Assembly (NCBI GenBank): GCA_034670305.1
Contig: JAXMNT010000005.1
Coordinates: forward strand, 96,001-160,000
Reading direction: 5' to 3'
Origin: Deltaproteobacteria bacterium
GTDB taxonomy: Bacteria > Myxococcota_A > Polyangia > Polyangiales > Houyiibacteriaceae
Length of the DNA stretch: 64,000 nucleotides
Below the pieces are notes generated by a model. That model saw only the letters and a program-made list of their open reading frames with translations, was not told where the DNA came from and made no database searches. Position numbers and translations under genes: made by a program. Below are positions 6,016 through 35,218 of this stretch, piece by piece. Position 1 is the stretch's first letter, and each line of letters opens with the position of its first letter.

Positions 6016-7320
6016 TCAGCGCAGCGGCACGTAGTAGCCACTCGCGACCAAGAGAGCGGGCGCTGCGGCTGGGTCGGACGACGTCTGCGGGGGCAACTCG
6101 AAACGCAAGCGCAGGACCTCGCCTTGCGCGATTCGATGAAAGCTTCGGTCCGCGTCGCAGTACGTCTGTTCCACTCCGTCCCCGTCCGTTGGCACCGCAC
6201 CGCACGCGGTCGGACGCACGATCTGTCCGTCCACCACGACGTGCACCGCGTCGAGGTAGGTCACCTCCCGCTTCTCTTCGCGCAGCTCGATCTCGAGCAC
6301 CCCCGACCGAACCGCGAGCGCCCCAGGCGGACCGAGCGACAACGACTGCTCGTCGTAGAGCGCCGCGCTTCGAAGATGTCTGAGGATCTCGCCGACGCGC
6401 CGCGGCCCGGCCGGCTCGATCACGTAGACGTATGGACACGCTGGGATCTCGCTGCACAACAGCCGCCGGCCCACCGGCCGCCTGCGCCGCTCGACGAACC
6501 GTCCATCGCGACCCAAACGAAGCACGGCCTCTTCTGGCTGCACGCGCTCCGGAAACCCAGCCCGCTCACAGGCCCCATGGTGGGTCTCGAGCACGCGAAT
6601 CGTTCCGTCGCCCGGAAACCGCAGCGGCGCCCGCCCGTCGGTGATCTCGAACGCCACCGCGTAGGTTCCTCGATGCGCCGCCACGACCACGAGCCGGTCC
6701 GGAGAATCCTCGTCGGGCTGCAGCGGAAGACGGAGCAGCAGAAGGTTTCGGCGCCGGTCGAGCCGAACCACCTCCACCGTGCGGGGGCGATCGCCTTCCG
6801 CATGCGCTGGGTTCTGCCGCACCTGGAGGCGAAGTTCGTGGGGACCGATCCGCAGCAACCCATCGCCGAAGAACGCGACCGCTTCGACTTCTCCGTCGCC
6901 ATCCAGATCTCCTCGGGTCTCTGCGACTGGTGCGTCTTCGTCGATGCTCCGGGACGCGTCCGCGACACTGCGGTCGACCGCGGCCGCGTCGTCTTCCGCG
7001 ACTGCGTCGACTTCCGCGACAGCATTCGCTTCCGCGACCGCAGGGTCCTCCGCGACAGGGTTTTCCGGGACGGCAGCCTCCGGGACGGCAGGGTCTTCCG
7101 GGACGGCAGCTTCCGCGGCAGGCGCTTCGCCCAACGTCTGTTCCTCCGCTCCGGTCTCAGTGAGGACCGTGTGATCGCCCGAACCGTTCTCCTGCTCCGG
7201 GGAGCGCTCGCTCGAATCTCCGCCGCCACATCCGAGCGCCAAGACCACGAGCACCGACCAACCCACTGGACCCAACTGCATCGCCATGCTCAACCCGCGC
7301 CACGCCGGGATGTGTTCCAT
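6016..7320 (-). CDS. hypothetical lipoprotein
   Basis: Lipobox LALGC, acidic linker, DLDGDG motif, CPYVY C-terminal domain; true start may be a later Met. Confidence 0.7.
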   Translation of the reverse strand: MEHIPAWRGLSMAMQLGPVGWSVLVVLALGCGGGDSSERSPEQENGSGDHTVLTETGAEEQTLGEAPAAEAAVPEDPAVPEAAVPENPVAEDPAVAEANAVAEVDAVAEDDAAAVDRSVADASRSIDEDAPVAETRGDLDGDGEVEAVAFFGDGLLRIGPHELRLQVRQNPAHAEGDRPRTVEVVRLDRRRNLLLLRLPLQPDEDSPDRLVVVAAHRGTYAVAFEITDGRAPLRFPGDGTIRVLETHHGACERAGFPERVQPEEAVLRLGRDGRFVERRRRPVGRRLLCSEIPACPYVYVIEPAGPRRVGEILRHLRSAALYDEQSLSLGPPGALAVRSGVLEIELREEKREVTYLDAVHVVVDGQIVRPTACGAVPTDGDGVEQTYCDADRSFHRIAQGEVLRLRFELPPQTSSDPAAAPALLVASGYYVPLR

Positions 7321-12052: not shown

Positions 12053-12099
12053 CACGCACCACGGCTTGACGGCGCGGTTGGCGTGGCGCACTTTCCTCT

Positions 12100-12248
12100 C
12101 GCGTATCGAGTCTCCTACGGGAGACCGGCCTCGGGAGAGACAACCTGAGGTCGAACGGGGAAGCCGGTGAAAGACCGGCGCGGACCCGCCACGGTAAGTG
12201 GACCTCCTCATGGAGGTTCCACGAGCCCGACACCCACTCGAAAGCGCG
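12100..12248 (+). promoter_or_regulatory. cobalamin riboswitch
   Basis: GGGAAgccGGTGaaagaCCGGcgcggacCCGCCACgGTAA core, B12-box-like GAGCCCGACACC, closing TCGAGT/ACTCGA helix. Downstream of TTGACG-N17-CACTTT and upstream of a TonB-dependent receptor. Confidence 0.85.
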
Positions 12249-12335
12249 CTCCCTCACACGCCTCGGGGATGGCGATCGGGACCGTCGGTCTCATGAGCCG
12301 AGTGCGGTCCGGGTCCTCGAGTCGGGACCCGATCG

Positions 12336-19808: not shown

Positions 19809-20510
19809 GTGCCAGCCATGATCCCCCAGCCACACAGTCCCGCAACCATTGAAGAATTCGCCGAATCTGCCGGATCGGACAATTCCCTCAGCTGCGCTCC
19901 CGCAGCGCGATTGTCGGAGATCCGGGGCGGCCAGGGGCGCACCACGCTGGCCGCGCTCGAGATCTTGGCCGCCCAAACGCGAGGTGAACCGGTCGCATGG
20001 ATCCAGCCCCGGGCTTCCACTTCCCTCTACCCGCCGGACCTCGCGGCCATGGGCATCGATCTCGACACCCTCGTGGTGGTGAACGTGCCGCCCAAAGCCC
20101 TCGAGGTGCTGGCCGCGTCGGAGGTGCTGCTCCGATCCGGCGGCTTCGGACTGGTGGTCGCGGACCTGACCGGCAGCGGTTCCACCATCGCAACCCGCGC
20201 CACCTCTCGACTGGCCCGGCTGGCCCGTCAACACAGCGCACGCCTCTTGCTCCTGACCGAAGAGGGCGTGGGCGAAGTCGGACCGCTGGTCAGCCTCCGG
20301 GTGCGGCCAGCGCTCGAACGACAGGGAGACGACTTCCGTCTCCACGTCGAGATCGAACGCGACAAGACCACCGAAGCGGGCGGCAGCGCCGCGCCCGGGC
20401 GCGTGATGGTCCGTGGACCGGTCGGCGCGTCGGAAGCGGACCGCGTCACCACGAACCGAGACCGATCGAGCGGGACTTCGGTCGTGTCGATCCGCCGGAG
20501 GGTGGCATGA
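19809..20510 (+). CDS. imuA: ImuA/RecA-like mutasome accessory protein
   Basis: RLSEIRG, degenerate Walker A, LYPPDLAAMGIDLDTL, LLRSGGFGLVVAD; precedes imuB-dnaE2. Confidence 0.8.
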   Translation: MPAMIPQPHSPATIEEFAESAGSDNSLSCAPAARLSEIRGGQGRTTLAALEILAAQTRGEPVAWIQPRASTSLYPPDLAAMGIDLDTLVVVNVPPKALEVLAASEVLLRSGGFGLVVADLTGSGSTIATRATSRLARLARQHSARLLLLTEEGVGEVGPLVSLRVRPALERQGDDFRLHVEIERDKTTEAGGSAAPGRVMVRGPVGASEADRVTTNRDRSSGTSVVSIRRRVA

Positions 20511-22738
20511 CCCAGCTCGCCATCGACGGACTCGAACCCGAACGCGATGCACGCGAAGAGGACGACGTGCCCTCCCGCGCGCAGCGGCGGCCCGAACACC
20601 GGCCCCCTCGGAGCAAACGCCGCAAGACCCGTCGCGCCCTGCGCCGCTCCGTGCTGCCGCCGAGCACGGACGAGAGCGCGACTGCGTCGGGAAGCACTGC
20701 GCCTTCGGGAAGCACTGCGCCTTCGGGAAGCACTGCGCCTTCGGGAAGCACTGCGCCTTCGGGAAGCACTGCGCCTTCGGGAAGCACTGCGCCTTCGGGA
20801 AGCACTGCGCCTTCGGGGGCGGCGGCCAGCGAACTTCCGGTGGGCGCCACGGCCGTGCTCCCCACGTTCCCTGCTCCGGAGCCCGCGCCCAAGCGGCGGG
20901 GCGTCTCGGTCGGGGACGATCCGGAGCTCGCGCACGCGGCGATCGTGATCGGCCAGCTCCCCGTGCAGCTCGTGCTTCGACGGGAACCTCGATGGCGCGG
21001 CACCCCGGTCGCGATCGTCGCGGGTGATGGACCCAACGCGTTGGTCACCCACCTGTCTCGGGAGGCACGCAAGCGAGGCCTGCGGGTCGGGTTGAGCCAA
21101 GGGGTCGCCCGCAACCTGGTGCCCGATCTTCGAACCCGCATCGTCACCGACGCAGAGCGCGACGCACTTCACCAGGACCTCGCCCGCGGTCTGCAGCTCT
21201 TCTCTCCGCGCGTGACGATCGAAGAACGTTTCGAAGGGTGTTTCACCGTCGACCCGACCGGGCTCGGTCCGCTCTTCGGCGGCATGGCCGCGTGGACGCG
21301 CGCGGTGCACGCGTACCTGAAAGGCCGCGGACTCTGGGCCGCCGTCGTGGTCGGCCGACACCGCTACCGCACGCTGGTCTCGGCGCTGTCGATGAACGGC
21401 CCCGCGGTGCTGAGCGCGGAAGACGAGTCCTCGAAGAGCGACGCGTGCACGCTGCGCGCGCTTGGGGTGCCGGAGAAGATCGCCGACCCCCTCGCGATGT
21501 TGAAGGTGCGCACCGTCGGCGCGCTGCGCGCACTCCCGGCGGGCGAACTCGAGACCCGGTTCGGAAGAGACATCCGCGCCCTGCAGGATCTCTTCGCCGA
21601 CCAGGGGCACCTTCCGATGCAGCCGCTCCGCCCCGAGGCACCGCGGCGCATCGAGCGAGAACTGCTGCCCCCGAGAACCACCCGCCATGCCGCGCTCGCG
21701 GATCTCTCCGCGTCGATCGACGAGCTCCTCGTGGATCTTCGTGGGCGCGGGGAAGTCGCCGAGGCGCTCACCTTCTCCCTTCAACTCGAGCGCCACGGAA
21801 CAGCCCGGCTGAGCGACTCCGAACGCCAGGTCGAAGCCCGCCTCGAACCGGCCGAACCCACCTGCGACCATGCGGTCTGGATGGAACTCGTCGGCCTGCG
21901 CTTCGACGAGATCCCCTTGCCCGCCGCGGTCCAGTCACTGGTCGTCGAAGCGGAGGTCCGGGCGCACCACGGCCAGCAGCTGCGGGTCCAGACCGAACCG
22001 GTTCCAAGACGCGACGCCCACGCCGCGGCCCGCGCGCTGGCCCGCCTGCGCGCCAGCTACGGCCCCTCCGCCGTCGCGCGTGCCGAGCTGCGCGACGCCC
22101 ACTTGCCGGAAGCGAAATTCGCGCTGGTCCCCTTCGAACCCGGCGCGCGCCTCGTGCGCAAGGCCGCACCGTCGCGGGCCAAGCCGGCGGTTCGGCACGC
22201 CAGCGCCTCCCCATCCGCACTGGCAGACGCGAAGGCGACACCGAGCGACGCGCCGAAGTCCGCCGGCGCCACGACCGAGCGCACCGTCATCGGAGGCGCG
22301 TCCGGCGCGCGCGCCGCGGGGTCGCTCGTCCTGCTCCGGTCCGACGCGCCCCGCTCCGACGCCATTCGGACCGACTCGGCCGACGCGGACGAAGACGCAC
22401 GCAGCGACGCAGCCGAGGACGGCGGCGACGACCTGGCGAGCCGGCGGGACGCCAGCGTGCCACTGCACGACCACGCACCGGACCGCCCGCGCCTGGCGCG
22501 CCGACTTCTCGCGCGTCCGCGTCGTTTGGGGGCGGGCCGCGAACCTGCGATCGGGGAGCGGGTGGTCGCGTTCTACGGACCGCACACGATCAGCGGGGGA
22601 TGGTGGGGCGCGCCGACGCCGAGCGGCGCGGTGCGCTCCACCGAACGCACGTACTTCTACGTCGAAGGAGAGAGCGGCCGGCTGCACTGGGTCTATCGAT
22701 CGCGCGGCGAGTGGTTCCTGCAGGGACACGTGGACTGA
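20507..22738 (+). CDS. imuB: ImuB, inactive Y-family polymerase
   Basis: ARKRGLRVG, FSPRV, C-terminal GPHTISGGWW...ERTYFYVE...WFLQGHVD; ATGA overlap with imuA. Confidence 0.82.
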   Translation: MTQLAIDGLEPERDAREEDDVPSRAQRRPEHRPPRSKRRKTRRALRRSVLPPSTDESATASGSTAPSGSTAPSGSTAPSGSTAPSGSTAPSGSTAPSGSTAPSGAAASELPVGATAVLPTFPAPEPAPKRRGVSVGDDPELAHAAIVIGQLPVQLVLRREPRWRGTPVAIVAGDGPNALVTHLSREARKRGLRVGLSQGVARNLVPDLRTRIVTDAERDALHQDLARGLQLFSPRVTIEERFEGCFTVDPTGLGPLFGGMAAWTRAVHAYLKGRGLWAAVVVGRHRYRTLVSALSMNGPAVLSAEDESSKSDACTLRALGVPEKIADPLAMLKVRTVGALRALPAGELETRFGRDIRALQDLFADQGHLPMQPLRPEAPRRIERELLPPRTTRHAALADLSASIDELLVDLRGRGEVAEALTFSLQLERHGTARLSDSERQVEARLEPAEPTCDHAVWMELVGLRFDEIPLPAAVQSLVVEAEVRAHHGQQLRVQTEPVPRRDAHAAARALARLRASYGPSAVARAELRDAHLPEAKFALVPFEPGARLVRKAAPSRAKPAVRHASASPSALADAKATPSDAPKSAGATTERTVIGGASGARAAGSLVLLRSDAPRSDAIRTDSADADEDARSDAAEDGGDDLASRRDASVPLHDHAPDRPRLARRLLARPRRLGAGREPAIGERVVAFYGPHTISGGWWGAPTPSGAVRSTERTYFYVEGESGRLHWVYRSRGEWFLQGHVD
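20687..20817 (+). repeat. perfect 18-bp tandem repeat x7 encoding (SGSTAP)7
   Basis: TCGGGAAGCACTGCGCCT repeated 7 times. Confidence 0.95.
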
Positions 22739-22747
22739 TCTCTCCGC

Positions 22748-25700
22748 ATGGCTGCGCCGCCGTACGTTCCGCTGTGGACCAAGAGCCACCACAGCTTTCT
22801 CGAAGGGGCCAGCAGTCCGGAGGAACTGATCGACACCGCCGGGGACCTCGGACTGCCGGCGATCGCCCTGACCGACCGCAACGGTGTGTACGGCGTGGTC
22901 CGCGCCCACGAGCGCGCCCGTTCGCGAGACGACGTGCGCGCGATCTTCGGCGTCGAACTCCGGATCGACGACGAGGAGGGCTCCCACGGTGCGCGTGAAC
23001 TCCAGCGCGGCAAGACCAGCGCCCGGTCGGCCGCGGTCGGTGGCAGGTGCGGTGGCACGCGCGGTGGCACGCGCAGTGGCAGTCGCGGTGCCACGCCCAG
23101 CAACGCAGGCAGCGCCGCCGGTGGCACCCGGAGCGCCATCGATGGCCAGCGCGTTGGCGAGGGTACAACGAGCGGATCGAGTCGCTCGGCACCGCGACGA
23201 GTCGGAGGCGCGCCGGCGGGCCGGGTCGTGCTCTTGCCGGTGGACCGGCGCGGCTGGGCCAACCTCTGTCGGCTGACCACCCGCGCGCACACCCGCGGTG
23301 CCAAGGGCGACGCGTGGGCGACGTGCGAAGAACTCGCCGACCACGCCGAGCACCTCATCGCGCTGAGCGCCGACCTCTCGCTGCTCCCAGTCATCCGTGG
23401 CGCCTTCGATCGCCGCGGACACGCCTTCGTCGCGCGTCACCGCATCTCCGGAGAACGGGAGCGCGAACAGCAACTGCGCGCCGCAGCATGGCGCCTCGGC
23501 CTTGGCCTCGTCGGCGGCCAAGAGGTGCTCTACCACCACCCCGATCGGCGCCGGCTGCAGGACGCGGTCAACTGCATCCGCCACCACACCACGCTCCGCC
23601 ACGCCGGCTCGATCCTCAAACCCAACCACGACTTCGCGATCCGCAGCGCGCGGGCGATGCGCGCCCTCTTCCGCGACGACCCGGCGCTGCTCCACGCCAC
23701 CCTCGACATCGCGGCGGAGTGCACCTTCCGGCTCGAAGATCTCCGCTACCGCTACCCGGAGGAGTCGTTGCCCGACGGAGAGACGGAGCAGAGCTGGCTT
23801 CGCGTCCGCACCCTGCGCGGCGCCGAGAATCGGTACCCGGCCGGCGTGCCCGAAGGCGTGCGCACCCAGCTCGAACGCGAGCTCGGCGTCATCGAGCAGC
23901 TCGAATACGGCGGCTACTTCTTGACCATGGTGGAGATCGTCGACTTCTGCCGCGCCGAAGGGATCCTCTGCCAAGGCCGCGGCAGCGCCGCCAACAGCGC
24001 GGTGTGTTTCTGCCTCGGCATCACCGCCATCGATCCGGTGCGCATGGATCTGCTCTTCGAACGTTTCCTCAGCGTCGAACGCGCCGAACCACCCGACATC
24101 GATCTCGACATCGAACACGAGCGCCGCGAGGAGGTCATCCAGCACGTCTACGAACGCTATGGACGCCGCCGCGCCGCGATGGTCGCCAACTGCATCCGCT
24201 ACCGCGGCAAGTCCGCGGTGCGCGAGATGGGCAAAGCGCTCGGCATCCCGGAGACCGATCTGGACGCGGTCAGCAAACTCATGCCGCACTTCGGAGGCGA
24301 GATTCAGGACGCAGAGGAACTGGCCAAGGGCGCGGGGCTCGATCCGCACGCGCCCTCCACGTTTCATCTGTTGAAACTCGCCAGCGAACTCATCGACGCG
24401 CCGAGGCACCAGTCGATCCACCCCGGCGGCTTCTTGCTCGGCGACGTGCCGGTCGACGAACTCGTGCCGGTCGAACCCGCGACGATGGAAGGCCGCACGG
24501 TGATCCAGTGGGACAAGTACGACGTCGAGAACCTGGCGCTCTTCAAGGTCGACCTGCTCGGCCTCGGCGCGCTCACCTGCATCCGCAAGTCCTTCGAGCT
24601 GCTGCGCGAACACGAAGGGCTCGACCTCGGCATCGCCACCGTGCCGCCCGACGACAAAGCGACCTACGACATGGTCTCCCGCGGCGACACCGTGGGCGTC
24701 TTCCAAATCGAGAGCCGTGCCCAGATGGCGATGTTGCCGCGCCTCAAACCCCGCACGTTCTACGACCTCGTCATCGAAGTGGCGATCGTGCGGCCGGGCC
24801 CGATTCAAGGCGACATGGTGCACCCCTACCTGCGCCGCCGCGACGGACTCGAGACCGTCGAGTACCCGCATCCGAAACTCGAGCGTGTGCTCCAGAAGAC
24901 GCTCGGCGTGCCGATCTTCCAGGAGCAGGTGATGAAGGTCGCGGTCGCGGTCGCGGACTACACGCCGGGCGAAGCCGACCAACTGCGCCGCGACATGGCC
25001 GCCTGGCGAAGCTCCGGCAAGATCGAGCAGCACCACGAACGCATGACCGGCGCGATGGTGAACAACGGCATCCCCCTCGACTTCGCCGAGCGTGTCTTCT
25101 CGCAGATCCGCGGCTTCGGCGAATACGGCTTCCCCGAGAGCCACGCCGCGTCGTTTGCGCTGCTCGCCTACGTCACCTCGTGGCTGCGCTGCCACCACCC
25201 CGCCGCCTTCGCCTGCGCGCTCCTCAACAGCATGCCGATGGGCTTCTACAGCGCCGCCACCCTGGTCGAAGACGCGCGCCGCAACGGCGTCGACGTCCTC
25301 CCCATCGACGTCCTGAGCAGCACCTACGACCACTGCCTGGTCCGCGACGCACTCGACTCGGGCGTGGGGGCGGGAGCCGGAGGGGGCGCGGAAGCGGGAG
25401 CGGGAGCGGGAGCGGGAGCGGTGGCGGAAGCAGGGGCGGGAGCGGAAGCGGGAGCGGCTGCGGGATCGGACGCGGCTTCGGGGTCGGCTTCGGCTTCGGC
25501 TTCGGGGTCGGGATCGGCTTCGGCTTCGGGATCGGCTTCGGGCGCACCCGAGGGCACGGGCAAGGGCAAGGGCACGGGCAAGGGAGCGCCGCCTTTGGCG
25601 GCGCTGCGAATGGGCATGCGGCTCGTCAAAGGCCTCTCCGAGTCCGACGCCCACTCGATCGAAACCCTCCGCCGCTCCGGCCGGCTCACCTCGCTCGAAC

Positions 25701-26314
25701 GCCTCGTGCGCGAGACAACCCTCTCCGAACGCGCCCTCGTCTCTCTCGCCGAAGCCGGGGCGCTCGAACGACTCACCCGGAGCCGCCGCGATGCGCTCTG
25801 GCAGATCCGCGCTTTGACCCGCGCCCGCCAAGACGGCATCGCCGCCGCCGCGCCCCGCACCCAGCTCAGCTTCGACGCCCTGACGGAAGACGAAGCCGTG
25901 CTCTGGGACTACCGCGCGTCGAAACACAGCGCGCGCGGCCACCCGATCGCGCGCTTCCGATCGGAGCTCCATGCGCGCGGCATGCCGAGCGCCGTCGACC
26001 TCGAACGCAACCTGCACGGCGACGTCGTGAAGTACGTCGGGCTCGTCATCTGTCGGCAGCGGCCGATGACCGCGAGCGGTGTCACCTTCATGACGCTCGA
26101 AGACGAGACCGGCTTCGCCAACCTCGTCTTCTGGGCCCGTCAGTTCGAACAGGACAGCGTGCTCTTGAAGACCGCGGTGGTGCTCGGCGTCACCGCCGAG
26201 GTGCAGAAGGCCGACGGCGTCACCCACCTCATCGTGCAGCGCGCCTGGCGACCACCCCCCGAGCTGCAACCGAAGACTCAAGAGCTGAACCACCAGTCCC
26301 GCGACTTCCATTGA
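22748..26314 (+). CDS. dnaE2: error-prone DNA polymerase DnaE2 (ImuC)
   Basis: SFLEGASSPEE, GRGSAANS, PPDIDLD, YGFPESHAASFA, C-terminal SRDFH. Confidence 0.95.
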   Translation: MAAPPYVPLWTKSHHSFLEGASSPEELIDTAGDLGLPAIALTDRNGVYGVVRAHERARSRDDVRAIFGVELRIDDEEGSHGARELQRGKTSARSAAVGGRCGGTRGGTRSGSRGATPSNAGSAAGGTRSAIDGQRVGEGTTSGSSRSAPRRVGGAPAGRVVLLPVDRRGWANLCRLTTRAHTRGAKGDAWATCEELADHAEHLIALSADLSLLPVIRGAFDRRGHAFVARHRISGEREREQQLRAAAWRLGLGLVGGQEVLYHHPDRRRLQDAVNCIRHHTTLRHAGSILKPNHDFAIRSARAMRALFRDDPALLHATLDIAAECTFRLEDLRYRYPEESLPDGETEQSWLRVRTLRGAENRYPAGVPEGVRTQLERELGVIEQLEYGGYFLTMVEIVDFCRAEGILCQGRGSAANSAVCFCLGITAIDPVRMDLLFERFLSVERAEPPDIDLDIEHERREEVIQHVYERYGRRRAAMVANCIRYRGKSAVREMGKALGIPETDLDAVSKLMPHFGGEIQDAEELAKGAGLDPHAPSTFHLLKLASELIDAPRHQSIHPGGFLLGDVPVDELVPVEPATMEGRTVIQWDKYDVENLALFKVDLLGLGALTCIRKSFELLREHEGLDLGIATVPPDDKATYDMVSRGDTVGVFQIESRAQMAMLPRLKPRTFYDLVIEVAIVRPGPIQGDMVHPYLRRRDGLETVEYPHPKLERVLQKTLGVPIFQEQVMKVAVAVADYTPGEADQLRRDMAAWRSSGKIEQHHERMTGAMVNNGIPLDFAERVFSQIRGFGEYGFPESHAASFALLAYVTSWLRCHHPAAFACALLNSMPMGFYSAATLVEDARRNGVDVLPIDVLSSTYDHCLVRDALDSGVGAGAGGGAEAGAGAGAGAVAEAGAGAEAGAAAGSDAASGSASASASGSGSASASGSASGAPEGTGKGKGTGKGAPPLAALRMGMRLVKGLSESDAHSIETLRRSGRLTSLERLVRETTLSERALVSLAEAGALERLTRSRRDALWQIRALTRARQDGIAAAAPRTQLSFDALTEDEAVLWDYRASKHSARGHPIARFRSELHARGMPSAVDLERNLHGDVVKYVGLVICRQRPMTASGVTFMTLEDETGFANLVFWARQFEQDSVLLKTAVVLGVTAEVQKADGVTHLIVQRAWRPPPELQPKTQELNHQSRDFH

Positions 26315-26598: not shown

Positions 26599-26799
26599 AT
26601 GATTCATTTGCGCTTCGAAGGACGCTCCTACGAGTTCACGCCCCTGCAGCTCGGTGTTCACGCCGGCAGCGACGCGCGGCACATCAAGGAGCGGATCGCT
26701 CAGTTCCTCGACGTCGGCACGGACCGGCTCCAGCCCTACGTCGTCGATCATTCCCCCACCGGACACGTCATCGTTCGTCCGGAAGCCGTCTACGGCTGA
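26599..26799 (+). CDS. small 66-aa putative ubiquitin-like (beta-grasp) protein ending in Gly
   Basis: MIHLRFEGRSYEF...IKERIAQFLDVGTDRL..YVVD...VIVRPEAVYG*; purine-rich RBS AAAAGGGAA; TTGACG -35-like element at ~26533. Confidence 0.75.
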   Translation: MIHLRFEGRSYEFTPLQLGVHAGSDARHIKERIAQFLDVGTDRLQPYVVDHSPTGHVIVRPEAVYG

Positions 26800-26840
26800 A
26801 GCCTCTCGACCGACGCTTCCCGTCTTGGCATCAAGAGTTC

Positions 26841-27011
26841 GGTTCTCGCGACCCTACGTAGAAAGCCTACATACCCATTTCAAACCTGAGGATGTCGGTG
26901 CAAGTCCGACCCGGCCCGCCGCGACGAACCGTCGCTTCTCCAATGGGTCGGTAGTTCAATAGATAGAACGCAGGAGAGTATCCAAAAGCTTTCGCGACTC
27001 GCGCGAGATCC
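26841..27011 (+). ncRNA. Y-RNA-like unit 1: circularly permuted tRNA-like domain (T arm, acceptor, D arm) closed by a conserved stem
   Basis: T arm GTCGG-TGCAAGT-CCGAC at 26894-26910; CCGGCCC 26911-17 pairs with the later GGGTCGG 26945-51; D arm GTTC/GAAC; CCTG/CAGG; outer GAAAGC/GCTTTC and CTCGCG/CGCGAG. Confidence 0.8.
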
Positions 27012-27053
27012 AATCCAACACTGTCCCAAGGGACCCCAACTTCGTCAGGCTAC

Positions 27054-27132
27054 GGTCTGGCACCGTCGGACGTGAGTCCGGCAAAGGGTTGGACGCAAGT
27101 CCAACCTAGACCAAGATGCAAAGCAGCTTGGT
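27054..27132 (+). ncRNA. structured element: 7-bp acceptor-like helix with two GNRA hairpins
   Basis: GGTCTGG/CTAGACC enclosing GTCGGAC-GTGA-GTCCGGC and GGTTGGAC-GCAA-GTCCAACC. Confidence 0.5.
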
Positions 27133-27135
27133 TAT

Positions 27136-27282
27136 GGCGTTGTAGCTCAGTGGTAGAGCTCCAAGTTTACACCGCTTTCGAAACTTACGCGCAGAGCAAT
27201 CAAGCGCGGCCTCATCGTGGAAGCGTACATACTGTTTGGCCTCATAAGCCGGATGTCATAGGTTCGAATCCTATCAACGCCA
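27136..27282 (+). ncRNA. Y-RNA-like unit 2: tRNA(CAT)-like cloverleaf interrupted by a 75-nt insert
   Basis: GGCGTTG/CAACGCC-A acceptor, GCTC-AGTGGTA-GAGC D arm, CC[insert 27163-27237]GGC-CTCATAA-GCCGG, ATAGG-TTCGAAT-CCTAT. Confidence 0.8.
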
Positions 27283-27312
27283 CCGACGAACAGATGTCTT
27301 CGACGTCTGACC

Positions 27313-27408
27313 TCGCGCCCACCACCTGTTCCTACACACTCTCTTTGCAACAGAAGTTCTGTCTTCGGGGAGCGATCCCCGTCGCAAACGAACAGGCGAC
27401 TTTCGCGA
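27313..27408 (+). ncRNA. Y-RNA-like unit 3 (degenerate body)
   Basis: TCGCG/CGCGA, CCTGTTC/GAACAGG, CTACACAC motif, internal GGGGA-GCGA-TCCCC hairpin. Confidence 0.65.
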
Positions 27409-27558
27409 ACACTCGTCACCAACGTTATTGCCCGTCTCTCGCGGGGTTTCTGTGGGCCCGGACGCCTTCGGCTTTCCGAACCCTCGAAAACGGCTCCGGA
27501 CCTGCTCGTCGCTTCGCTCCTGCGCGGGCCCAGAGCCTCCCGCGCGAAAGATCACGTT

Positions 27559-27678
27559 CCTCGTGCCCTCACCCTCGCGGCTTACACACTCGTCTAATGG
27601 CTAGACACCGGATTATGGATCCGGCCATGGTGGTTCGATTCCACCGTGTCCAAATCAGCCGAGAAACCTTGCACGAGG
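27559..27678 (+). ncRNA. Y-RNA-like unit 4: D/anticodon(ATG)/T arms with the acceptor replaced by the conserved stem
   Basis: GTCT/AGAC, CCGGA-TTATGGA-TCCGG, GGTGG-TTCGATT-CCACC; ACAC/GTGT, CGGCT/AGCCG, CCTCGTGC/GCACGAGG. Confidence 0.8.
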
Positions 27679-27690
27679 TTCACAACTTTC

Positions 27691-27820
27691 TTCCTCGTAC
27701 CCTCACAGGACCGGCTTACATACTAGCCTAATTGGTAAAGGCGACGGATTCTTAATCTGTAGATTGGGGGTTCGAGTCCCCCGTATACTCAAAACAGCCG
27801 ATCCAATCTTGTACGAGGAA
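27691..27820 (+). ncRNA. Y-RNA-like unit 5: D/anticodon(CTT)/T arms with the acceptor replaced by the conserved stem
   Basis: GCCT-AATTGGTAA-AGGC, ACGGA-TTCTTAA-TCTGT, GGGGG-TTCGAGT-CCCCC; ATAC/GTAT, CGGCT/AGCCG, TTCCTCGTAC/GTACGAGGAA. Confidence 0.82.
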
Positions 27821-27853
27821 ACTATTTTGTCGGCGCCATTCGGCGCCTTCTGC

Positions 27854-27889
27854 ACCTGACACCTCGACCTGCGGGTCGAGGTGTCGGGT
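27854..27889 (+). other. strong 16-bp hairpin after the RNA array
   Basis: ACCTGACACCTCGACC-TGCG-GGTCGAGGTGTCGGGT; no clear U tract. Confidence 0.55.
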
Positions 27890-27949
27890 CGCTTGGGTTT
27901 CGAAGCATCGGACACGTTCCGAAGCCGGTTCTCGGCATCGGAACGCGGA

Positions 27950-28080
27950 GTCGGTTTCCGGCTTCGGACTCGGCTTCGGCTTCGGCTTCGGCTTCGGATT
28001 CGGCTTCGGCTTCGGCTTCGGCTTCGGCTTCGGCTTCGGCTTCGTATTCGGCTTCGGTTTCGGCTTCGGTTTCGGTTTCC
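27950..28080. repeat. (GCTTCG)n hexamer tract
   Basis: Tandem hexamers. Confidence 0.85.
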
Positions 28081-28119
28081 GCCTCTGTTTCCGCGACCGC
28101 GACCGCTCTTGGGCGATGA

Positions 28120-29694
<1,575 letters not shown>

Positions 29695-29990: not shown

Positions 29991-30089
29991 GGAGGGACCA
30001 CACAGCGCTTCGAAGCAGCGCTTCGCGAACAGCCGCCGTTCCAAACCTTCGTGCGTGGTCCGCCACGCACACCACCTCAGGAGGTCGTC

Positions 30090-30911
30090 ATGACCCAGAC
30101 CCAGATGCACAACGCCTACCGCCTGGCCGCCGCCGCGGTCCGTCGCCGCTACCTCGAGCAGCGCCCCGCCACGCTTGACGCACTCGATGCGCTCGCGCGT
30201 GGACACGTCGGGGTGCTCAAGGGCACGTACGACTCCGTCGAGCACGTGCTCGAGGCGCTGGGTGTGCCGTTCGAGATGAACCCGAAGAAGCTGACGCCCA
30301 AGTCGGGCAAGAAGGTCGTCTTCGCGAACTGCGCGAGCGCCTACACGCCCGAGCTCGTGTCCGACATCGAACGGTCGGTGCGCGAAGGTGCGCTGCTCGT
30401 GAGCTCGGACTGGGCGCTCGGCCGGCTCATCCAGGTCGGTTTCCCCGGCACGATCCGCAAGGCGCCGAAGGGCTCCAAGGACGAGGTCGTGGGCGTCGAG
30501 CCCACGCTCGACGGCATCTGGTCGGAGATCGTCGTGCTTGGTGCCGACCCGCAGTGGTGGCTCGAAGGCGGCAGCGAAGCGATCGAGGTTCTCGACCACG
30601 AGCGCGTGCGCGTCGAAGCGTCCAGCCACGAGATGCTGTGCAGCTACGACGCGTCGCCGGTCGCGGCGAGCTTCGACTGGCACGCAGGCCGCGTGTTCCA
30701 CGTGGTCAGCCACTTCTGGCTCAAGCGCACCCGCGCCGCGACGCCGGCGACGGCGGCCGACTTCCTCCGGCGCGGCATGCGCCTGAGCGAAGAGGGCATC
30801 GAGAAGGTCTTCGCGACCTCCAAGGTGCCGAAGGACCAGATCGACTTCGCGTCGCTTCAGAGCGCCGCGACGTCGACCGAACTGGTCGCGCGCCTGGTCG
30901 CGGAGGCGTGA
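30090..30911 (+). CDS. hypothetical protein, probable class I glutamine amidotransferase-like fold
   Basis: [54 protein letters not shown] alpha/beta pattern. Confidence 0.65.
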
Positions 30912-30952: not shown

Positions 30953-31236
<284 letters not shown>

Positions 31237-31261
31237 GCCCATCACCGAAAGCCCATTCCCC

Positions 31262-32134
31262 ATGACCCACGTTCTCGATCTCATCGATCGGCTCGCCAAG
31301 CGCGAGGCCGAGTTCGCGCAGCGGCGGTTCCTCGCGCCGTGTGTGCCGGGGGCCAAGCTGCGTGTGCGCATCGATGGACTCGTGCACGAGGTTCGGCCGA
31401 ACCCGGCGGGCTTCGCGGGGTGGGGGGTGTTTCAGGCGATCGACGCGAAGCGCGCGCAGCTCGTGGCGCGTCCGGAAGCGTCGTCGATCGAGCGGTACCT
31501 CGGGGCGCTCGATCTCGTGCGCTTGCACCTCGTCTCGCAGGCGCGCGGTCGCGCGTGGTGGGCGGTGCCCGTCGGCGCGGAGGCGTTGCGGGTGCGGTAC
31601 GGATTGACGGCTCCGGTCGTCGTCCACCTCACGCGGGATGCCACCCAGTTCGAGACGGTGCAGGCACGCTTCGACGGCGCGAACTTCTGGTACGCCGGAC
31701 CGGAGTACCTCGCGGATCCGGTGCTCGCCGAGACCCTTCGCGACGCGCTTCAGACGTGGATCGAAGCGCCTCGGGCAGCGCATCTGACGCCGGAGCTCCT
31801 GCACGCCTACGCGCTCGCGTTTGGCATCCAGGCCGAGGCCCGGGCCAAGAAGCTCGCCGCAGAAGTCGCCGAACGTCGCAAGACGGTCGACGGCCGCATC
31901 GAGCACGCGCTGCACGTCGGTGGCGGCACGCTCATCGGGCACCGCGAGGCGCACGGTGCGCTTCAGGTGGAGTGGCGGGACCGCCACGGCCACCGCCACA
32001 TCAGCACGCTCCGCATGGAGCAGCTCGAGGTCTCCATGGCCGGCGCGGTCTGTCTGCAGGGCCGCGACTCGGACTTCGATCTCACCTCGCTGGTCGGCGT
32101 GCTCTCGCAGGCGCCCGACTACTTCTACGACTGA
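31262..32134 (+). CDS. hypothetical protein with putative E2-like C-terminal domain
   Basis: Clean ORF; C-terminal [19 protein letters not shown] (Cys264). Confidence 0.7.
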
Positions 32135-32287
32135 CCCCAAGCCGAGCGGCTGGAAACAACGCCAGCCGCTCGCTCCTTCTCTGCGCCGCACCCGTTCTCT
32201 GTGCCGCGCCCGTCTCTGTGCCGCGCTCGTTCAGGGCCGCGCCCGTCCTGGGCCGCGGCCCGACTGCGCTTACGAAAGCTCGATCCC

Positions 32288-32914
32288 ATGACCTTCCTCT
32301 TCCACGAAAAACTGTTCCGCGGTGCGGATGCGATGACGCGTCTCAAGGACGCGAAGGTCGGGATCTGCGGCGCCGGCGCACTCGGAAGCCACCTCGCGCT
32401 CGGGCTCGCCCGCACGGGCGTCGGCCACCTGCGCGTCATCGACCGCGACCGCGTCGAAGAGCGCAACCTCTCCACCCAGACGTGGTCCCGCGGCGACGTC
32501 GGGGGCCCGAAGGCGAAGTTGCTCGCGCACACGATCTTCCGCGCGGTCGGCACCCAGGTCGATGGCCGCATGAAGGAGCTCACCCGTTCCAACGGGCGCG
32601 CGCTGCTGCGTGGTCTCGACTTGGTGATCGACGTCTTCGACAACAGCGAAGCGCGGGCCGCGGTGCAGCTCGCCGCCGCAGAGCTTCGGATCCCCTGCCT
32701 CCACGCCGGCCTCGCGTCGGACTACGCGGAGTGCGTCTGGGACCCCCACTACACGGTTCCGTCAAACGCGAACGACGACGTCTGCGACTACCCGCTCGCC
32801 CGCAACCTCGCGGTCGTAGCGGCCGCGCTCGCGTCCGAGCTCGCCGTGCGCTTCCTCGCCACCGGCGAGAAGCGCGACCTCGCGCTGACGTTCGGCGACC
32901 TGCGGATCACCTGA
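32288..32914 (+). CDS. ThiF/E1-like adenylyltransferase
   Basis: [25 protein letters not shown]; candidate catalytic Cys166 in DDVCDYP; no CxxC zinc motifs. Confidence 0.9.
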
Positions 32915-33859: not shown

Positions 33860-35218
33860 TCAGAAGCCGAGCTTGCGCTCGATCGCTTCGACCGCGCGCT
33901 GGGTCTTCTCGTCTTCGCCTTCGAGCAGGCCGGTGATCTTGCGGACGGCGCTGATGACCGTCGTGTGGTCCTTGCCGCCGAAGCGTTCCCCAAGGGCCGG
34001 GTAACTCGTGCCGAGTCGCTCGCGGCACAGGTACATCGCGACCTGCCTCGGGTAGCTCACCGCGCGGTGCCGCTTCTTGCTCTTCAGATCGCTGAGCTTG
34101 ATCGCGAAGTACACACAGACCGCGCGCTGGATGTCTTCCACCGTGAGCGCCTGCTCCGGTTTCGGCATCGCGGCGCGCAGAGAGTCCTTGGTCAGATCGA
34201 TGTCGATCGGTCGGCCGAGCAGCTCCGCTTTCACGGCGAGTCGAAGGAGCGTGCCTTCGAGCTCACGCACGTTGCTCTTCACGACCTGCGCGATGAAGTG
34301 CGCCACCTCGTCGAGCAGCGGGATCTGTTCGGCTTCCGCCTTCTTGCGGAGGATCGCGATGCGGGTGTCGAGCTCGGGCGGCTGAATGTCCGCGACCATG
34401 CCCGACTGGAACCGGCTCACGAGCCGTTCTTCCATCTCGGCGATGCGCTGCGGGTACACGTCCGAGGTGACGACGATCTGCTTGTCCGAATGGTAGAGCG
34501 CGTTGAACGTGTGGAAGAACTCTTCCTGGGTCTGGTCACGTCCGGCGAGGAACTGGATGTCGTCCATCAGCAGCACGTCGCAGTTGTCGCGGTAGCGCGC
34601 GCGGAACTCGTCGATGCGGTGGTTCTGCAGCGACCAGATGAACTCGTTCGTGAACTTCTCGGCGCTCAGGTAGAGGATGGTCGCGTCGGGGTTGTCCGCC
34701 AGGATGCGGTGGCCCATCGCGTTCATCAGGTGGGTCTTGCCGAGACCGACGCCGCCGTAGATGAAGAGCGGGTTGTAGCGTTTGCCGGGGGCCGAACCGA
34801 CCGCGATGCTCGCCGCGTGGGCGAGCTGGTTCGACGGTCCGACCACGAAGCTGTCGAACTTGTACTTCGGCTGCAGATGCGCCTTGCGCACCGCGTTGCT
34901 CTTGCGCGGAATCGCACGCGCCTTGGGTTTCGGCGGCGGCGCGCTGGCCCGCTGCTTCTGAGGAACCTGCAGCGTGTCGTCGACCTGGAAGCTGAGCTTG
35001 GAAGGGGCGTCTTCGGTGCCTTGTTCGCCGAGCACCTCGAGGATCAGATCCTGGTAATGGTTCTGGATCCAGTCCGCGTAGAAACGATTGGGAATGCGAA
35101 GCACGAGCGCCTCGCCTTCCAGACCCTCGCAACGAACCGGCCCAAGCCACGTCGCGAAGTTCTCGGCCGAAAGACGCCCACGAAGCGTTTCCAGCGTACG
35201 TTCCCACAGGTCGTTCAT
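33860..35218 (-). CDS. dnaA: chromosomal replication initiator DnaA
   Basis: [51 protein letters not shown]; start at ATG 35218 or GTG 35239. Confidence 0.98.

Follow-up and report, generated by a model that had tools for sequence, protein, structure and literature searches.

A tandem array of five module-bearing, Y-RNA-like units probably partners a cryptic Ro60-like protein encoded downstream

What are five small structured units, each built around the same interrupted helix and set out in a row on one strand, doing ahead of a gene for a protein that domain searches scarcely recognize? This question is raised by a 64-kb stretch of DNA (the window) from a Deltaproteobacteria bacterium, in which an array of five module-bearing units occupies positions 26843-27819 of the + strand. 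The array is flanked, on the same strand, by a 66-aa open reading frame (ORF; 26599-26799) before it and a 487-aa ORF (28231-29694) after it, and 411 nt separate its end from the start of the 487-aa gene. The explanation that we hold to be probable is that the array encodes five Y-RNA-like RNAs of a previously uncatalogued family, which would partner a cryptic clade of Ro60 proteins (TROVE plus VWA domain) by seating the constant module on the protein ring and presenting variable bodies as mimics. Ro60 and Y RNAs are conserved from bacteria to humans, and for only a handful of Y RNAs has a target of recruitment by the variable part been established.

The element common to the five units is a two-stranded module. 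Its 5' strand is composed of an outer stem, a C-rich loop (CCCUAC, CCUCAU, CCCACCA or CCCUCAC), a middle stem and the word UACAYAC, and its 3' strand is composed of GU(A/G/U)U, an A/C-rich loop, the middle stem, a loop of the ACUU/ACUC type and the outer stem. In general form, the first asymmetric loop places 5' CCCU(N)AC opposite 3' (G/A)ACUU, the second places 5' UAC opposite an A/C-rich 3' strand, and the inner helix begins A(U/C)AC / GU(A/G)U. An initial annotation of this DNA had described such an interrupted helix in RNAs set out as an array, and the module can indeed be read in all five units. Copies of the word TACA[CT]AC in the window number six on the + strand and one on the - strand, and five of the six + strand copies fall in the array, at 26868, 27226, 27333, 27583 and 27717, exactly where that annotation had placed them. 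The stems that it reported as differing in sequence while still pairing were recovered as well, for example GAAAGC/GCTTTC in unit 1 (u1), CCTGTTC/GAACAGG in u3 and CGGCT/AGCCG in u4 and u5, as was the lower G+C content of the region (0.53-0.62 over 26700-27900 versus 0.64-0.75 in the flanking genes). A feature that it overlooked is that the order of the two strands is reversed in u2.

The bodies carried by the module differ from unit to unit. In u1 (26843-27009, + strand, as are all units and spacers), an open module (outer stem 26844-50 / 27002-08; middle stem 26861-66 / 26988-93; UACAUAC 26868-26874) encloses a circularly permuted, YrlA-like tRNA body in which a T arm (26894-26910) is followed by a closed acceptor-like hairpin and a D arm (26951-26969). 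The tRNA-like u2 (27136-27284) has the opposite arrangement, with free acceptor ends GGCGTTG / CAACGCC that form a perfect stem of seven pairs. Its module is a closed hairpin (27165-27234) with the D arm on one side and, on the other, an anticodon-like hairpin (27236-27252, loop CUCAUAA), which is followed by a T arm (27258-27274). Because the module is a closed hairpin inside the tRNA, its 3' strand (27165-27187) precedes its 5' strand (27209-27232), the outer stem being closed by a loop at 27188-27208 and the middle stem reading GAAGC / GCTTTC. This unit is collinear with two units of another genome (locus L002), with covarying acceptor stems. In u4 (27558-27679; UACACAC 27583-27589) and u5 (27692-27819; UACAUAC 27717-27723), an open module runs into the acceptor stem of a full cloverleaf; the acceptor stem begins within UACAYAC and extends into the module, and the anticodon loops are AUG in u4 and CUU in u5. 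Since the anatomies of u1, u2 and u4/u5 differ, the module scaffold is tied to tRNA-like folds in three topologies. The unit u3 (27310-27411; UACACAC 27333-27339; middle stem 27325-31 / 27390-96) has an open module with a 50-nt body that consists, in the minimum free energy (MFE) structure, of a stem UUUGC / GCAAA around two hairpins. Consequently, the earlier statement that the bodies are different tRNA-like folds stands for four of the five units (u1, u2, u4 and u5) and fails for u3.

The spacers between the units are also structured. The first (27010-27135) contains stable hairpins, including a T-arm-like one near 27088-27107 (MFE -58 kcal/mol), and the second (27412-27557) is G+C-rich. A related metagenome DNA contig retains u1, u2, u3 and u4 and lacks 27061-27105 and 27424-27551. 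The absence of 27061-27105 indicates that at least that part of the first spacer is dispensable, and the retention of the units together with the loss from two spacers agrees with selection that maintains the units but leaves the spacers free to change.

The module was then assessed with covariance models trained on other genomes. Model R1 was built from an alignment (A2) of 41 diverse units with the window left out, and model R2 covers the module only and was built from 24 minimal units of other genomes. In the 64 kb, R1 finds u5 (100.7 bits, E 1e-22), u4 (89.9 bits, E 5e-20, full model) and u1 (28.2 bits, E 9e-5) with no further match at E<0.1, and with R2, 30.6 bits (E 1.4e-4) are obtained for u1 and 20.1 bits (E 0.03) for u3, with u4 and u5 not listed. 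With the filters off, R1 loses u1 and gives u3 just 9.1 bits (E 0.42). As models trained without the window match nothing else significant in it, the five-unit module is beyond chance. When R1 is run on all 7.9 Mb of the genome, u4 and u5 are the only matches above 80 bits, and the remaining full-length matches are ordinary tRNAs that have neither the motif nor the module. The structure of A2 is paired in 94.8% of its cells and compensatory changes occur in 29 of its 37 pairs; its covariation score is 0.512, versus 0.200 for shuffled alignments (none of 500 reaches it) and at most 0.127 for slid registers. The stem covariation first noticed within the locus is therefore also present across other genomes, where the covariance-model search proposed with it finds the module near homologous loci.

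Outside the array, one orphan unit was read by eye on contig C21 of the source genome (- strand, ~113330-113575; locus L090, ~1831-2076), between trehalose-synthesis genes and a DUF2330 gene. It has an outer stem of nine pairs, CCCAAC, a middle stem of five pairs, TACACAC, a 155-nt body and a 3' loop of the GACTC type, and the body starts with a stretch resembling helices 69-71 (H69-71) that is close to the genome's own 23S rRNA. This unit is known from hand reading because both R1 and R2 miss it. Other candidate module sites were set aside, four of them (C31:61725, C31:79189, C53 and C90) having no matching 3' strand and one (C85:15268) lying inside a 16S rRNA gene.

The identity of the downstream protein is not apparent from sequence searches. 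Pfam returns just a weak VWA_2 match, and no TROVE/Ro60 match was obtained in Pfam (E<=0.001), in NCBIfam or with phmmer against the PDB. A search of the whole source genome with the TROVE family (PF05731) gave no match, while two control genomes do match. A profile built from 24 homologues gave a collinear, weak match in the PDB (E 0.04) to two entries named 'TROVE domain-containing protein'. The fold is more informative, as the AlphaFold (AF2) model (pLDDT 84, pTM 0.76), with an N-terminal helical-repeat ring and a C-terminal VWA domain, has Ro60, Rsr or TROVE entries, a phage Ro60 included, as all of its top 12 Foldseek matches (E 1e-12 to 1e-9, TM 0.57-0.68, 13-17% identity, full length over 475-566 aligned columns), and proteins with a VWA domain only trail far behind in the ranking. 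By its predicted fold, the 487-aa protein is a divergent Ro60; the initial proposal of a divergent TROVE partner is borne out by a protein that is invisible to Pfam yet has the Ro60 group as its 12 best structural matches. The metazoan Ro60 structures 1YVP and 9NFA are the best of these, sharing the ring and VWA fold with the modelled protein despite the low identity. The residues D304, S306, S308, T366 and D390 are invariant among the 24 homologues and in our own reading may correspond to the DxSxS...T...D of a metal-ion-dependent adhesion site (MIDAS) in the VWA domain. The gene is present in a single copy in the source genome. A protein search returned 2336 clusters at E<=0.001 among 8000 scored, and the best 120 clusters (59-100% identity, the query's own cluster counted) come from Myxococcota, Cyanobacteria, Chthonomonadaceae and others, under the source names 'VWA domain-containing' or 'hypothetical'. 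Because domain searches miss this clade, earlier surveys based on TROVE annotation would not have seen it.

The RNA and the protein are linked across genomes. A scan of representative genomes matched at least 607 stretches, of which at least 580 encode a relative of the 487-aa protein, in Cyanobacteria, Myxococcota, Armatimonadota, Acidobacteriota and others. Eighty loci (L001-L080), fetched via the downstream Ro60-like protein only and including several from named strains of Nostoc, Calothrix, Moorena and Oscillatoria, were searched with R1, which gave at least 300 matches at E<=1e-4; among the matches listed, 299 lie on the gene's strand and 121 reach 80 bits, 41 of the latter being training rows. 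A script located units in 75 of the 80 loci (median 3 and maximum 9 in a locus); 229 of these units precede the gene and 19 follow it. Of the five remaining loci, L006, L053 and L078 have less than 350 nt of upstream DNA, L017 has an inverted RNA part, and L058 has no unit. Searches of 60 further genomes from the window's phylum gave neither the protein (E<=1e-20) nor the RNA (E<=1e-12). A 595-kb uncultured phage (L091, LR756511.1, 279786-293246) encodes a Ro60-like protein of 45% identity; nine R1 matches at E<=0.01 all lie upstream of the gene on the same strand (best 85.8 bits), and the motif reads UACAAAC in place of UACAUAC. The gene also occurs on two plasmid records. The initial annotation had named a lack of the motif near homologous loci as one of the observations that would count against it, and the motif is instead found in most of the 80 loci and in the phage.

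Some of these loci contain a minimal unit of ~75 nt in which the module carries only a short hairpin (L032 3863-3938, L075 3863-3938, L019 3716-3791 and ~20 other loci). In many cyanobacterial loci it sits 60-150 nt ahead of the Ro60-like start codon, a position that suggests feedback binding to the mRNA, and the minimal units could act in autoregulation, as a site of binding within the leader of the mRNA. It might then be argued that all units are cis-acting elements of the operon mRNA, as copies of an autoregulatory leader, or a mobile repeat, and not independent RNAs; that the units are tandem repeats with conserved ends is in keeping with this. We consider this explanation highly improbable. 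The array in the window ends well before the gene, and no minimal unit was found by R1 search between the two. Moreover, the stems covary while the loops are fixed across phyla and in the phage, which a selfish repeat would not show, and the bodies retain complete tRNA and rRNA-domain folds.

The resemblance to tRNA raises the possibility that the units are simply tRNA genes or pseudogenes, with the leader and trailer serving as processing signals and the link to the protein incidental. ARAGORN calls three tRNA-like genes in the array (27208-27284, 27582-27654 and 27717-27790), corresponding to u2, u4 and u5, and the same units exceed the Rfam tRNA (RF00005) cut-off of 29 bits: u2 with 50.6 bits (27136-27282, with a 66-nt insertion), u4 with 39.4 bits (27583-27653, two non-canonical acceptor pairs) and u5 with 50.5 bits (27720-27786). 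True tRNA arrays also lie upstream of the units in two loci. Nevertheless, u4 and u5 fail the test of an ordinary tRNA acceptor, since neither has an identity-specific stem of seven pairs with free ends and the stem instead continues into the leader-trailer helix; in u5 the Rfam alignment is confined to model positions 4-67 and leaves the first three acceptor pairs unaligned. In the 80 loci ARAGORN makes 125 calls, all on the gene's strand, and 98 of them, in 56 loci, start at a TACAYAC-like word. In these 98 units the 5' strand of the acceptor is UACAYAC whatever the anticodon (29 anticodon calls), so that non-canonical pairs are left. The bacterial tRNAs for Leu and Ser have a long variable arm. 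Leu anticodons are found in 28 of the units and Ser anticodons in five, and 87 of the 98 units measure 72-76 nt, with lengths that are not split by anticodon; such units are too short for the long arm, which counts against their being tRNA genes. Stop-reading, CUA and 2-nt 'anticodons' occur, and the same kind of flanks also carry bodies that are not tRNA-like. In the source genome, flanked units are confined to the array and the by-eye orphan on C21, and ordinary tRNAs have no such flanks. Taken as a whole, an origin as real tRNA genes is extremely improbable. The long arrays of ordinary-looking, module-free tRNA genes mentioned above are at L012 93-1119 and L067 17-1326, on the same strand as the units.

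A comparison with YrlA, YrlB and Yrn1 RNAs and their partner Rsr bears on whether the family is new. In the available text of Chen et al. 2014 (PMC4201824), YrlA RNAs share the strand of an annotated TROVE gene and lie no more than 4 kb from it, have a 5' motif GNCGAAN0-1G that is proposed as the Rsr site, and contain a tRNA-like domain whose acceptor stem is closed; each species makes two or more Y RNAs from one precursor, and few YrlA matches are reported in cyanobacteria and delta-proteobacteria. The array shows the same placement beside a gene that is a Ro60 gene by predicted fold only. Further resemblances are that several small RNAs precede a gene of Ro60 fold and share its strand, and that their 5' and 3' ends pair in a long stem with conserved internal loops. 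Among the bodies, u1 repeats the permuted arrangement of a T arm, a closed acceptor and a D arm, whereas u2, u4 and u5 are tRNA-like but joined in other ways and u3 has no such domain. One could hold, then, that the units are ordinary YrlA/YrlB Y RNAs and the protein a plain Rsr, with nothing new but another locus. The permuted arms of u1 do align to the whole Rfam YrlA model (RF02553) at 26856-27000, sub-threshold YrlA matches are found within the bodies of 85-95 nt (~94 nt) of L055, and the upstream, same-strand position agrees with the available text of Chen et al. 2014 (PMC4201824).

This identification is very unlikely, because the defining comparisons (Rfam score, 5' motif and Pfam TROVE) go the other way. 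The YrlA comparison had been suggested in the initial annotation, and when run it gave u1 only, at 28.2 bits (E 0.0016) against a cut-off of 69, with no match at E<=10 for u2-u5. There is no full GNCGAAN0-1G motif in 26841-27820, and among the A2 units the GNCGAA 6-mer falls within the first 35 nt in one of 41 and the full motif anywhere in three of 41. The units thus stand apart from the Y RNAs catalogued so far, as first proposed. The protein, for its part, fails Pfam TROVE in a genome that has no PF05731 match, unlike the control genomes. Differences extend to the conserved words of the array RNAs, which are new (CCCUNAC, UACAYAC and the A/C-rich loop), and to the way in which the bodies are joined, via the acceptor stem (u4, u5) or with the module as a closed hairpin inside a free-ended tRNA (u2). 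Neither acceptor-stem attachment, the closed form of the module nor the rRNA-like bodies described below appear in the available part of the Chen 2014 account (PMC4201824). What the present family adds to YrlA is the attachment topologies, the rRNA-like bodies and a gene context with a candidate ubiquitin-like protein and an E1, and a distinct Y-RNA class for a divergent TROVE clade, as first suggested, has the support of the predicted fold, the YrlA tests and the recurrence of the module with covariation. A literature search of limited coverage yielded no account of the module, of these proteins as members of the Ro60 group or of Y RNAs with rRNA-like bodies. Metazoan Y RNAs likewise have a stem formed from both ends and a variable upper part; no tRNA-like or rRNA-like body is known to be described for animal Y RNAs, and in the available text of Chen et al. 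2014 (PMC4201824) a tRNA-like domain is stated not to be apparent in them.

The bodies in other genomes are not all tRNA-like, and many resemble functional centers of 23S rRNA by sequence. Thirteen of them open right after UACAUAC with a 12-mer identical to the sarcin-ricin loop of the source genome's 23S rRNA, and a GTPase-center word is present in 11 of these 13. Ten such units give a consistent alignment and fold. The units that join a copy of the sarcin-ricin loop to a copy of the GTPase-associated center are ~200 nt long (L075 6220-6421, L055 5878-6078, L054 6966-7167 and 11 more loci), and their usual place is directly upstream of two further genes of the cluster, Y and E1. Bodies of ~154 nt, most of them next to gene Y on its upstream side, exceed the Rfam large-subunit rRNA (LSU) cut-off at the L11/GTPase-associated region, with matches above cut-off at L055 5959-6041 and L075 6315-6370. 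The sarcin-ricin loop and the GTPase-associated center together form the binding site of the translation GTPases. Ten other bodies contain an H69-71-like stretch. When the bodies were compared by blastn with the source genome's 23S rRNA, ten matched at E 3e-8 to 0.015 and two more at E 0.027-0.031. On the rRNA operon, the matches cluster at three 23S sites (sarcin-ricin, GTPase center and H69-71) and at the spacer tRNAs, and four stray short matches lie elsewhere (E 0.013-0.05). Just upstream of a module unit, L075 1268-1351 gives a sub-threshold Rfam tmRNA match (39.6 bits, cut-off 47), which may reflect a further type of body or a tRNA-like match arising by chance.

Copying of ribosomal and transfer RNA is known from other systems, rRNA being mimicked by the leaders of ribosomal-protein operons and tRNA by tmRNA and viral tRNA-like structures. 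The principle is that a non-ribosomal RNA copies a local fold, so that a protein recognizing the original also binds the copy. The bodies considered here similarly copy local rRNA or tRNA folds. Unlike the operon leaders, they are present as several mimics on one constant scaffold, arrayed beside a Ro60-like gene, and none is the mRNA leader of a protein that binds it.

The array and the Ro60-like gene belong to a larger cluster. The first gene is the 66-aa ORF immediately ahead of the array (+ strand), which tblastn finds in 55 of the 80 loci, on the same strand and upstream of the Ro60-like gene in 54. Its product has no match in Pfam, is always 66 aa long and ends ...RPEAVYG; the C-terminal RPEA-YG and the final Gly are invariant in 23 of 23 sequences, making it a candidate ubiquitin-like protein. 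Downstream of the Ro60-like gene, also on the + strand, are protein X (286 aa, 30051-30911), protein Y (290 aa, 31262-32134) and a ThiF/E1-like adenylating enzyme (237 aa, 32201-32914; PF00899, E 3e-29), to which PADLOC E1-E2 models match down to E 1e-17. The counts of the last three genes in the 80 loci are limited by the 4-kb flanks of the fetched loci: X is found in 22 (downstream, same strand), Y in 29 (usually directly before the E1 gene) and E1 in 22. No match was obtained for X in Pfam, the PDB (sequence and profile) or PADLOC, or for Y in these and the ESM Atlas. For Y, AF2 gave a poor model (pLDDT 66, pTM 0.41), with which Foldseek returned nothing at E<=1e-3; its weak rows are OB/S1-type proteins, from which no conclusion was drawn. 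The Salmonella Ro60 operon, in the available text of PMC7790460, contains RtcB and RtcA, in place of which a Gly-ended 66-aa protein and an E1 are found here. From what is known of Ro60, a link to a candidate ubiquitin-like protein and an E1 was not to be expected. Ahead of the Ro60-like gene, positions 27950-28090 contain long runs of the hexamer GGCTTC and its variants, and reverse-complement runs (GAAGCC/GACGCC) occupy 30990-31240, between genes X and Y. These inverted simple-repeat arrays lie on either side of the Ro60-like gene and X and could, judging from their sequence, pair over ~3 kb within a transcript.

This gene context raises the possibility of a different partner for the RNAs. 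The module may be recognized by X, Y or the 66-aa protein with E1, and not by the Ro60-like protein, the RNAs being, for example, substrates or guides for modification or tagging. The 66-aa gene lies immediately ahead of the array in 54 of the 80 loci, and the sarcin-ricin/GTPase-center units stand directly upstream of Y and E1 (in L075, the unit at 6220-6421 is followed by Y from 6613). In other organisms, tRNA thiolation makes use of E1-type enzymes with small carriers that end in Gly, which by analogy would be compatible with such a role. Still, the loci were obtained with the Ro60-like protein as query, and the RNA occurs wherever enough upstream DNA is available, whereas X, Y and E1 are detected in just 22-29 of the 80 loci, even if short flanks hold that number down. 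Ro60 is, in addition, the one component with a known habit of binding stems of this kind. We judge a partner other than the Ro60-like protein to be distinctly unlikely.

The preferred explanation, Y-RNA-like RNAs that partner the cryptic Ro60 clade, leads to a mechanism that may be sketched as follows. First, the array would be processed into separate RNAs, and the constant module would provide a platform for the Ro60-like ring, by analogy with the conserved stem of known Y RNAs. Next, the variable body would project from the module and imitate a substrate of the translation machinery; in the window these bodies would be the four tRNA-like folds in three topologies and the one small junction of u3. 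The bodies would then recruit to the Ro60-like particle, or be acted on by, proteins that recognize tRNA or rRNA centers. Finally, the Gly-terminated 66-aa protein, E1, X and Y probably act on the particle or on what it captures. In this form, the RNAs make the 'tether' idea explicit, with one scaffold and copies of tRNA and of three functional centers of 23S rRNA. Because these copies are recognizable, they allow guesses at the partners, namely translation GTPases, L11-type proteins and tRNA-modifying or H69-modifying enzymes. The finding also adds a large hidden clade to Ro60, a huge phage included.

Several observations weigh against this explanation or qualify it. Since the canonical 5' motif of Y RNAs is absent, recognition of the Ro60 type is an analogy, and X or Y could be the RNA-binding partner instead, the low-confidence model of Y having a weak likeness to OB/S1-type folds. 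The ACUU(G) element that precedes the 3' strand of the outer stem resembles the Rfam consensus of YrlA, which suggests that the helix is a variant and not something unrelated. Both R1 and R2 miss the module of u2, because it is permuted, and this unit was seen as a tRNA with an insertion; u3, the weakest of the five units, is marginally significant (R2, E 0.03), and its body is not tRNA-like. The A2 units were preselected by a script that required 6/6 pairing in parts of the outer and middle stems, and the paired percentage of these helices is therefore inflated, whereas this filter affects neither the three tRNA helices (D, anticodon and T) nor the variety of pair types. A promoter and terminator scan found no promoters and one terminator-like site, within chance expectation. 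Contigs of 151-152 nt from a salt-marsh metatranscriptome library lie on 26958-27105, 27126-27276 (two differences) and 29354-29505 (no differences), the second of which corresponds almost exactly to u2; as such libraries can contain DNA, these contigs are a weak hint of expression.

A more specific function is conceivable, although we regard it as unlikely. The Ro60-like ring would hold the RNA scaffold so as to display baits, exchangeable heads that copy the targets of toxins, phage factors or antibiotics (various tRNA anticodon arms, the sarcin-ricin loop together with the GTPase center, and H69). An attacker caught by such a head, or damage to the head, would lead to tagging of the captured protein or of the particle by the 66-aa protein, E1, X and Y. 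If this were true, the copy carried by the huge phage would protect or reprogram translation, and the system would be a form of surveillance by RNA decoys that has no described counterpart.

Other features of the window lie outside this cluster. Directly upstream of it, at 19997-26314, are an ImuB-like gene (IMS family) and a gene for a DnaE2-type polymerase III alpha subunit. An Rfam match to 'AsdA antisense of dnaA' above cut-off (57.9 bits) at 34679-34759 is probably a match to coding sequence, and a cobalamin riboswitch is found above cut-off (53.7 bits) at 12092-12255.

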